Of a DNA stretch of 64,000 nt, positions 12,152 through 13,774 are shown piece after piece. The translations under genes and the position numbers were made by a program. Within the stretch, counting starts at the first letter, position 1. Each line of letters starts with the position of its first letter. This DNA is from Corallococcus interemptor (GTDB lineage: Bacteria > Myxococcota > Myxococcia > Myxococcales > Myxococcaceae): NCBI RefSeq assembly GCF_050270115.1, contig NZ_JBNNJP010000025.1; one strand, given 5' to 3'. The notes under the pieces were generated by a model. It searched no databases. It was not told where the DNA came from and saw only the letters and a list, made by a program, of their open reading frames with translations.

Positions 12152-13774
12152 CTACGCGTTGCGGCGCACCATGGCCACGTCGTAGTGGCGGTCCGTCACG
12201 TAGCCGTTCGCGGCCTTGCCGGGGCGGTACATGTTCCCCGTCTTGTCATCCACGTAGAAGCGGTTGTTCGGGTTCGTGTCCTTGCCCTTGCTGGCGTTGG
12301 TCGTGCCCGGGTCGTGGAACGTGTAGTAGGTGCGGCCCTTGTCGTCGACGCCGCGGCCCGTGATGGTCACGAAGTGGTCCGTGAGGCCGTCCGCGTTGTA
12401 GCTCGCGTCCTTGTGGCTGACGCCCACGACGACCGGCTTGCCGGCCTCCAGCTGCTTGTCGATGTAGTTGCGGCCCTCGGCGGCCTTCTTCGGGTCCACC
12501 TTCAGCGCGCCGACGCCGTTCTCGCTCGTGCCCACCTGGATGCGGCGGTCCGGGCCCAGCACCGTGGCCTTCGCGTCGCGAGCCATCGCCGTCGCGGCCT
12601 TGAAGCACGCCGTGTCGCTGGCCGTGTAGCCGTGGCCGTTCTCGAACTGGCTGTAGTACGGCACCTTCACGTGCACCGCCGGCTTGTCCTTCGCGCCGGC
12701 CACCTGCTGCGTGTCCGTGCGGTCCGCCTCCGTCGTGGGCTTGGAGGTGTTGGTGCCCTGCGTGTTGCCCGTGCCCTGCGTGCGGCCCGGCTTCGAGTCG
12801 CCGTTCACCGACGGGGGGACCACGCCCGTGTTGGTGTTGGACGGCTTCGTCGTGGCGCCGGACTGCTCCTTCTTGAGCATGGCCAGGGCGTCCTTCGCCT
12901 CCGACTTGAAGCGGTTGGCCACGCCCTTCTGCACTTCCTTGGAGTTGCCGGAGAAGTGCACCAGGGTGCCGCTGGCGTTGGTGCGGCCGCGCTCGGCGTA
13001 GATGTCCTTGATGAGCTGCTCGTCGCTCACCTTCGCGGGGTCGCGGCCGGCCAGCGCCTTCTTGAAGATGTCATCCGCCTTGCCCGGGCCGTGCTGCACG
13101 GAGGTGGACCAGGCCACGTCGCGCAGCGCCGCGGAGCGCTTGTCCAGGTCGATGCCCGTCGCCTTCTTGATGTTGGCGGCGCCCGGGTCGTAGTGCGTGG
13201 CCTTGATGTAGTCGTGCTGGGCCTTGTCGAAGCCCTTCGGGTCCTTGGCCGCCAGCTGCTTCCACGCGGAGGAGAACTCCGCGGAGCCCGGCTTGCTGCC
13301 CGAAAGCGCCTTGTAATAGTCCGGGTTCGTCTTCTTCAGCGAGTTGACGAAGGACTGCGCGGACCCGTTCGCGGACGCGAACTGGTAGGAGCCGTAGGAC
13401 ACGCCGCCCTTGTCGCCCTTGCCCGTGGACACCGTGCCGGGGCCGCGCGCCTCGTACTTGCGGCTCAGGCTGCCCAGCTCGCCACCCGCGTTGCTGGTGG
13501 TGCTGCCCTCGGGGGGAGGCAGCGTCTTCTGCGTGCCGCTGGTGGACTGGGTGAAGGTGTCGCCCGACGTCTTCGTCCCGGCGCTCGACCGGGTGGTGGG
13601 CTTCGCGTCGAAGCCGTCCCGCACCTGCACCTTGAGGGCCGTGCCCGCGAGGATCTTGTTCGGATCCTTGATGTTGTTGGCCTTGGCCAGCGCGTCAACG
13701 GAGGTGTTGTAGCGCTTCGCGATTCCGGAGAGCGTGTCGCCAGAACGGATGCGGTAGTTGGAGACGTCAGCCAT
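12152..13774 (-). CDS. Multidomain cell-wall-targeting protein: N-terminal LysM + GH46 (chitosanase/lysozyme-like) domain + Pro/Thr-rich linker + C39-like papain-fold cysteine peptidase domain; no signal peptide
   Basis: LysM: [45 protein letters not shown]46-like: [69 protein letters not shown], collinear with Streptomyces N174 chitosanase (FTKDWATAAKDT…YFDPAVSQAKADGL…AIVMHGPGNDP). C39-like: [27 protein letters not shown] (Q…C oxyanion/nucleophile arrangement). Confidence 0.75.

Follow-up and report, generated by a model that had tools for sequence, protein, structure and literature searches.

A leaderless LysM-containing hydrolase and its divergently encoded partner in Corallococcus interemptor: a candidate orphan effector-immunity pair directed at peptidoglycan

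A 64,000-nucleotide stretch of the genome of Corallococcus interemptor (NCBI RefSeq assembly GCF_050270115.1, contig NZ_JBNNJP010000025.1; the whole stretch is hereafter called the window) contains two divergently oriented genes, one for a putative modular cell-wall hydrolase and the other for a Cys-rich, all-beta protein with a cleavable signal peptide, which are separated by a shared intergenic region (Table 1). The window has a GC content of approximately 70%, and the third-position GC of the hydrolase reading frame (0.97) is as expected of genuine genes in this window. A Shine-Dalgarno-like motif (GAGGGGG) precedes the ATG at 13774, and the reading frame is closed by a stop five codons upstream of this ATG, which makes an N-terminal extension impossible and rules out an alternative upstream start that would add a signal peptide. 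Within residues 1-60, the highest 12-residue Kyte-Doolittle mean is 0.98, compared with 2.29 in the neighboring secreted protein, and a hydrophobicity scan of the whole hydrolase detected no transmembrane-like segment. On the basis of hydrophobicity and the upstream stop codon, the protein carries neither a Sec nor a Tat signal, and the LysM fold is the very first element in all of the 17 orthologues aligned, in agreement with the initial annotation, which had reported a signal-peptide-less protein starting directly with LysM. The hydrolase is 100% identical to an NCBI protein of C. interemptor that is annotated merely as 'LysM peptidoglycan-binding domain-containing protein', and its locus is 97% identical to that of strain AB047A.

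Pfam and PDB sequence searches reproduced the order of modules that had been proposed from the letters alone, namely a LysM module, a domain of lysozyme/chitosanase fold, and a domain of papain fold. The Pfam match to LysM covers residues 7-49. The two linkers between them are rich in Thr (18-22%), Gly (11-14%), and Pro (8%), as had also been noted, and in some orthologues the region of the first linker holds a second LysM. The middle domain is matched by PF21277 ('T6SS spike protein VgrG3-like, C-terminal'; T6SS, type VI secretion system) with 179.7 bits (7.3e-53, profile positions 1-182 of 183). By contrast, the GH46 chitosanase profile PF01374 reaches just 22.1 bits (E=1.3e-4) in a partial match to residues 129-240, which is below the curated Pfam cut-off of 27 bits that applies to both families, and chitosanase 7C6C is matched weakly (0.02) in the PDB search. 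The earlier assignment of this domain to GH46 was thus abandoned, and the predicted substrate is peptidoglycan rather than chitosan. The structures of Vibrio cholerae VgrG3 (4NOO/4NSO) match residues 100-255 at 3.4e-27, and the segment KYEARGPG...GDKGG, which contains E108 and D121, aligns with EKYES...GNGDYGG of VgrG3. This Glu/Asp pair, whose retention had been anticipated, is kept in every inspected relative bearing the VgrG3-C-like (VgrG3C) domain, including those from Myxococcota, Acidobacteriota, and Alphaproteobacteria; its counterparts in VgrG3 are presumably E827 and D842 of the 2014 structure papers. The hydrolase is not an evolved VgrG, in which a toxin domain is fused to a gp27/gp5-like spike: no VgrG or Phage_GPD domain was found by the Pfam search, and the N-terminus is LysM.

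The C-terminal peptidase domain is related to the toxin domain of BtaeB (Bfe7), which together with BtaiB forms an effector-immunity pair of the Bacteroides fragilis GA3 T6SS (PDB 9JDD, 9JG8/9; Li et al. 2025, Cell Host Microbe 33:1901, via PMC13402684). Residues 367-514 are matched at ~1e-21 by 9JDD/9JG8, with 9JDD reaching 1.6e-21; both entries are named 'Peptidase C39-like domain-containing protein' in the PDB, and the domain is homologous in both sequence and structure to the solved C-terminal domain of BtaeB (BtaeB-CTD, 9JDD_A). Among 33 diverse sequences of the peptidase domain, C390, D466, H467, and D488 do not vary, and S375 and Q376 are nearly invariant. In the alignment with BtaeB (9JDD), Q376, C390, and H467 each fall on an identical residue, and D488 stands opposite a Glu. 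The VPYYSQ...C motif pointed out in the initial annotation was found to hold Q376 and C390, the latter being the sole Cys of the hydrolase. The designation of this domain as C39-like stood at the level of the fold and of a Cys-containing papain-fold peptidase, whereas membership in C39 or C39_2 gained no profile support: a Pfam search of the hydrolase at E<=1 yielded neither of these families and gave just 0.17 for BtrH_N, and weak precomputed PF13529 matches occur in a few orthologues. None of the Pfam models tried captured the BtaeB-CTD-like domain at significance. This domain is present in 1,193 clusters at 50% identity (E<=1e-3), is nearly always C-terminal, and follows LysM, PG_binding_1/3, SH3_3, Amidase_2, VanY/M15 plus Hydrolase_2, ankyrin repeats, or an eCIS_core marker. 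These associated modules argue that the domain probably acts on peptidoglycan.

Table 1. Features of the hydrolase-partner locus and of a Kil-like cluster in the same window (positions in the window; aa, amino acids; pI, isoelectric point; CTD, C-terminal domain)
Feature	Position	Strand	Remarks
Hydrolase (candidate effector) gene	12152..13774	-	540 aa, pI 9.6, single Cys, no signal peptide
LysM peptidoglycan-binding module, aa 5-50	13625..13762	-	Pfam PF01476, 7e-15
Linker 1, aa 51-99	13478..13624	-	T/S/G/P-rich; length differs among orthologues
VgrG3-C-like lysozyme/chitosanase-fold glycosidase domain, aa 100-292	12899..13477	-	PF21277
Predicted catalytic E108	13451-13453	-	codon verified
Predicted catalytic D121	13412-13414	-	codon verified
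Linker 2, aa 293-366	12677..12898	-	T/G/N/P/K-rich
BtaeB-CTD-like papain-fold cysteine peptidase domain, aa 367-540	12155..12676	-	PDB 9JDD match
Predicted active-site Q376	12647-12649	-	
Predicted active-site C390	12605-12607	-	
Predicted active-site H467	12374-12376	-	
Predicted active-site D488	12311-12313	-	
Shared divergent intergenic/regulatory region	13775..13964	.	190 bp
Palindrome TTGCC-N13-GGCAA around CGATAAT	13827-13849		
Second short inverted repeat	13845-13870		
Candidate immunity gene	13965..14984	+	339-aa protein
Partner Sec signal peptide, aa 1-25	13965-14039	+	
Partner N-terminal beta domain, aa 31-190	14055-14534	+	6 invariant Cys
Partner lipocalin-like C-terminal beta domain, aa 210-330	14592-14954	+	
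Double-FHA protein	44537-46780	-	Kil-like cluster
FHA-fused CpaF/TadA-type ATPase	46761-48539	-	Kil-like cluster
Short Tad-type secretin with BON	48664-50442	-	Kil-like cluster
FHA protein	50809-51726	-	Kil-like cluster
759-aa protein of no assigned function	51727-54006	-	Kil-like cluster

The partner protein had no match in Pfam, NCBIfam, or PHROG searches, and a word-based search recovered its homologues as a small family of 18 clusters from myxobacteria only, which have in common the six invariant Cys of the N-terminal domain. Among 48,164 PDB chains, its best structural match is BtaiB, the protein that occurs in one crystal complex with BtaeB. Thus, the hydrolase and its partner each independently find, as best structural match, one chain of the same T6SS effector-immunity complex. 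Across six myxobacterial genera, the partner is the sole neighbor kept beside the hydrolase gene: it lies directly upstream and divergent in Myxococcus, Pyxidicoccus, Cystobacter, Archangium, and Stigmatella, where all other flanking genes differ. Based on tblastn searches of all window neighbors against the orthologous loci, synteny with the hydroxylase, LysR, SDR (short-chain dehydrogenase/reductase), and vault-protein genes is limited to Corallococcus. Among the Myxococcus strains that have the pair is Myxococcus sp. RHSTA-1-4. Comparison between genera gives identities of 66-80% for the effector domains and 35-57% for the partner domains. The conserved signal-peptide-bearing partner, which the initial annotation had overlooked, argues against the intracellular role that it had considered for the hydrolase. 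A lone homologue of the N-terminal Cys-rich domain of the partner was also observed in Hyalangium gracile (P0198, L071 5001-5633); its surroundings hold no hydrolase gene, and it looks like an orphan immunity gene.

The intergenic region shows a mean identity of 88% across nine Corallococcus species and is conserved beyond expectation, given that the proteins of these species are 74-97% identical. The inverted repeats near 13827..13870 are short and imperfect (a 10-nt pair with 90% and a 21-nt pair with 71% complementarity). One compensatory double change is present in the palindrome (TTGGC..GCCAA in C. aberystwythensis), and the CGATAAT motif recurs in degenerate form in other genera; the second repeat is not kept in more distant species. 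Common regulation of the divergent pair is plausible. As for the dedicated regulation that had been read from the adjacent inverted repeats, the repeats are present, and the regulation itself is just a suggestion; a sigma-70 promoter scan of the region found no consensus promoter, and no regulator was identified for it.

These features suggest that the hydrolase and its partner probably constitute an orphan antibacterial effector-immunity module, in which a leaderless effector is encoded next to a co-inherited gene for a signal-peptide-bearing partner with six invariant Cys. The fuller interpretation, namely a leaderless bifunctional peptidoglycan hydrolase that is accompanied by a periplasmic immunity protein and delivered most probably by the T6SS, is favored with somewhat less confidence. 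What each enzyme cuts and the role of the partner in immunity are inferred, as is, most of all, delivery by the T6SS. In the proposed mechanism, the N-terminal LysM would anchor the protein on the glycan strand, the VgrG3-C-like domain would cleave the glycan backbone by means of the acid/base pair E108/D121, and the BtaeB-CTD-like peptidase would cleave the stem peptide or a cross-link with C390, H467, and D488 and with Q376 at the oxyanion site. The flexible linkers may allow both catalytic modules to reach the same patch of the sacculus. The leaderless hydrolase, most probably carried by the myxobacterial T6SS, would leave the cell in one step and enter the periplasm of Gram-negative neighbors. 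The partner is expected to travel by Sec to the periplasm of the producer, where, stabilized by disulfides, it would bind and block the toxin arriving from siblings, and its two beta domains might plausibly neutralize one catalytic module each. The idea in the initial annotation that a single enzyme attacks the glycan as well as the peptide of the wall appears to be right as far as specificities can be predicted from domains, and T6SS cargo, one of the export routes that it had listed, is the route preferred here in view of the T6SS-related domains and partner.

As a claim in its own right, delivery by the T6SS is tentative and has slightly less than an even chance. It was proposed by analogy, because homology or structural similarity to T6SS proteins was seen for the partner and for both toxin domains, because the combination of a leaderless effector and a periplasmic partner would make sense only if the toxin enters the periplasm of kin, because TsxE of Myxococcus xanthus is a LysM-containing T6SS effector, and because T6SS wall hydrolases with two activities, such as Tse4, are known. 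Several observations weigh on the other side. No genes of a T6SS, a type VII secretion system (T7SS), an extracellular contractile injection system (eCIS), or a phage were found within ~10 kb of the pair, either in the window or in the loci of eight relatives, and a Pfam search of the hydrolase detected no T6SS loading domain (PAAR, MIX, FIX, or Rhs). The relation of the partner to BtaiB has no sequence-level support, the identity being only 15%, and small beta-barrels are common folds, a caveat that applies to this structural match. Orphan effectors exist, so the missing linkage weakens the T6SS assignment without excluding the T6SS.

The strongest competitor, which we consider unlikely, is that the hydrolase is a freely released predatory lysin, leaving the cell by a non-classical exit (outer-membrane vesicles, lysis of a subpopulation, or Kil/Tad-like or T3SS* (type III secretion system) machines) and dissolving prey walls, especially those of Gram-positive bacteria, while the partner is a periplasmic inhibitor that guards the producer once its own outer membrane is breached. 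Many lytic enzymes are set free by myxobacteria, a further LysM-first lysozyme without a leader (C25GH19C of Corallococcus silvisoli) is predicted to be non-classically secreted (PMC10875029), M. xanthus induces LysM genes when it preys (PMC9548883), and no T6SS linkage was found. Such a role is nevertheless hard to square with a tightly linked, fast-evolving periplasmic partner if the enzyme stays outside an intact outer membrane, and both toxin domains as well as the partner resemble T6SS effector or immunity proteins. Kil-dependent killing is reported to involve local degradation of prey peptidoglycan by an unidentified secreted hydrolase (PMC8460266), and a Kil-like cluster lies ~30 kb away in the window; however, secretins of the Tad or type II secretion system (T2SS) kind export periplasmic, Sec-dependent substrates, the hydrolase has no signal peptide, and its closeness to the Kil-like cluster is not kept outside Corallococcus, where no evidence for such a cluster near the gene was found. 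Improbable, and clearly more so than a free lysin, is an autolysin by which the producer would act on its own wall in developmental lysis, in the morphogenesis or germination of spores, or in wall remodeling, with the partner as its periplasmic regulator or inhibitor. Large-scale lysis and wall remodeling during myxobacterial development, the strongly conserved regulatory region of the pair, an S13 carboxypeptidase nearby in the window, and the position of some genes of the wider LysM-VgrG3C family among housekeeping genes (e.g., beside alanine racemase) would agree with this role, but a leaderless protein cannot get to its own sacculus without a dedicated exporter, and the kin of both catalytic domains are toxins used between bacteria, not housekeeping hydrolases. 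Moreover, the pair is not universal, with a module-swapped variant in M. xanthus, and its context differs in every genus and forms a variable locus within Corallococcus, which is the behavior of accessory toxin-immunity cassettes.

An antifungal enzyme, i.e., a true GH46 acting on the chitosan or chitin of fungal walls with a chitin-binding LysM, seems very improbable. The fold in common with GH46, the weak GH46 and 7C6C matches described above, the ability of LysM to bind chitin as well, and the preying of Corallococcus on fungi are compatible with it. Nonetheless, the PF21277 profile is far stronger, the closest solved relative has been described as a cell-wall-targeting, lysozyme-like toxin domain (PMC9927483), the fused peptidase and the other fusion partners of that peptidase are peptidoglycan modules, and a periplasmic immunity-like partner would be senseless against a fungal target. 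The least credible origin, with hardly any chance, is a prophage endolysin or the remnant of a phage lysis cassette, in which a leaderless modular lysin would be freed by a holin. Endolysins from phages of Gram-negative hosts are typically leaderless and modular and have their binding domain at the N-terminus, endolysin PHROGs are matched by the LysM part, and Peptidase_C39_2 occurs in endolysins; on the other hand, phage, holin, or spanin genes stand beside the pair at no locus examined, the partner has a cleavable signal peptide instead of holin-type transmembrane helices, and the phage matches of the VgrG3C-like domain are internal parts of giant proteins (PHROGs of 966 and 1,925 positions) outside the lysis category. 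In a further scenario, as improbable as an autolysin, leaderless LysM-first hydrolases might be wall hydrolases delivered at prey contact sites (Kil/Tad-like-dependent holes) by a contact-dependent, non-T6SS route whose substrate class comprises LysM-VgrG3C-C39, LysM-X-C39, and LysM-GH19 lysins, and the partner might be a dual immunity protein with one half for each catalytic module.

Comparison with known systems indicates that the parts of the pair have precedents. The middle domain of the hydrolase is homologous across the full profile (7e-53) to the C-terminal domain of V. cholerae VgrG3, with the same EKYE...GxGDxGG acid/base motif; the latter, a toxin targeting peptidoglycan, acts in the periplasm and is neutralized by the periplasmic immunity protein TsiV3. 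GH46 chitosanases (Streptomyces N174 CsnA; PF01374) have the fold and the Glu/Asp pair in common with the hydrolase, but their profile likeness is weak, and unlike the Corallococcus protein they are Sec-secreted, use chitosan as substrate, and are without a peptidase fusion or an immunity partner. BtaeB (617 aa) has a different N-terminal region, which engages a T6SS adaptor, and is encoded in a T6SS locus, whereas the Corallococcus protein carries LysM and a glycosidase and is an orphan; the Corallococcus partner is ~2.7 times the size of BtaiB and has extra domains. We know of no LysM in Tse4 of Acinetobacter baumannii. This effector and its kin follow the same logic of combined glycan and peptide cleavage (Le et al. 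2021 PNAS; Bezkorovayna et al. 2025 mBio, via PMC12949010), but Tse4 has unrelated folds (a lytic transglycosylase and an endopeptidase) and is vgrG-linked, unlike the Corallococcus hydrolase. In M. xanthus, TsxE/TsxI (MXAN_5572/5571) provide a LysM-bearing T6SS effector with a predicted wall target and an adjacent immunity gene (PMC5801462); the catalytic domain of TsxE is amidohydrolase_2 and its gene lies directly 3' of vgrG2, whereas the Corallococcus pair has no vgrG linkage. Like the hydrolase, the lytic C25GH19C has an N-terminal LysM and no signal peptide, so the leaderless LysM-first design recurs in this group, but it contains one unrelated catalytic fold (GH19), and an immunity partner is not reported for it.

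Since peptidoglycan-targeting effector-immunity pairs and bifunctional wall hydrolases are already established, the principle is not new. The pair combines known parts in a new and uncharacterized way and does not represent a new type of system. What is new is the joining of two toxin domains, known from T6SS effectors of unrelated phyla (VgrG3-C of Vibrio and BtaeB-CTD of Bacteroides), in a single free-standing protein with LysM in front, a large multi-domain immunity-like partner of which one part has the BtaiB fold, and the apparent behavior of the pair as an orphan cassette across six genera of predatory myxobacteria. The hydrolase may also be considered a candidate for the enzyme that perforates prey peptidoglycan locally when myxobacteria kill by contact, a question left open by the Kil study (PMC8460266), and it offers a handle on how the recurrent leaderless LysM-first lysins of Myxococcaceae exit the cell. 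The present labels, just 'LysM domain-containing' for the hydrolase and 'hypothetical' for the partner, could be corrected in the annotation.

The distribution of the architecture was examined in other genomes, as the initial annotation had proposed. The LysM-VgrG3C-papain-fold order occurs in approximately 45 clusters (90% identity), all from Myxococcaceae and Archangiaceae, and none of the 22 relatives inspected has a signal peptide. Both catalytic modules also occur shuffled in other proteins; the VgrG3C-like domain is elsewhere combined with M23, CHAP, or YkuD/Tlde1-like modules or is present as LysM-VgrG3C alone. These domain associations argue that both modules are part of a toxin-domain pool common to contractile injection machines.

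Several relatives deserve separate mention. In M. xanthus-type relatives (P0060, P0064, P0068, and P0081, ~540 aa; L069 6001-7623, CP068048.1), LysM and the cysteine peptidase enclose another middle domain (SNSESAIVVGTSEGNRTPNGGFTASYGGHTDPGN), for which searches of PDB, Pfam, and NCBIfam gave no match. The vicinity of these relatives holds no partner-like gene; such proteins appear to be module swaps. A 1078-aa protein (P0254) has the peptidase domain fused to an N-terminal eCIS_core (PF13699), a marker for cargo toxins of eCIS. In Nakamurella and related actinobacterial metagenome-assembled genomes (P0145 and P0146; L067 8001-8954), the peptidase domain lies behind a helical N-terminus of ~100 aa with a W-x-G motif ('LEWYGTDG' and 'VDWQGPDA'), which by eye recalls WXG100/LXG substrates of the T7SS; a Pfam search of these two N-termini for WXG100 or LXG gave no match. 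An NlpC/P60 gene is located directly 3' of the actinobacterial peptidase gene at L067 8001-8954. The VgrG3C-like domain was also detected inside very large jumbo-phage proteins without an assigned function, such as that of Erwinia phage vB_EamM_Alexandra (MH248138.1, 94829-95401), and is matched by phrog_26249 and phrog_34863; these proteins may be virion-associated wall hydrolases.

Variation was also seen around related genes. In another Corallococcus genome (L070, CP114039.1), the interval between the vault-protein and hydroxylase genes (403..7943) is a variable locus, with two additional uncharacterized genes (335 and 519 aa), an Exo_endo_phos gene, and a second, tandem LysM plus C39-like gene (P0122, 282 aa) directly 3' of the three-domain gene. 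In Myxococcus landrumensis (L072, CP071091.1, 1598-6453), a VgrG3C-only protein with a long disordered N-terminus (P0055) is encoded beside an IS66 transposase and small uncharacterized open reading frames (108 and 98 aa), surroundings which suggest that the toxin module is mobile.

In the window itself, the immunity-like gene adjoins a bacterial gene (15071..~17350, minus strand, in a long open reading frame that extends to 18427) whose product is homologous to the eukaryotic Major Vault Protein. This product contains MVP_shoulder (6e-45) and Vault repeats 1-4, is 94-99% conserved across Corallococcus species, and has its true start probably near MPSAPSTEAIQRISLKNREYAY. The Tad-like secretion cluster at 44537..54006 (minus strand), which is bordered by polA and glyS/glyQ, resembles Kil cluster 1 of M. 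xanthus, a contact-dependent prey-killing apparatus. Envelope and peptidase genes nearby encode an S13 D-Ala-D-Ala carboxypeptidase (PBP4-like; 21085..22734, plus strand), a prolyl oligopeptidase (22769..24952, plus strand), and an M1 aminopeptidase (4421..7165, minus strand).

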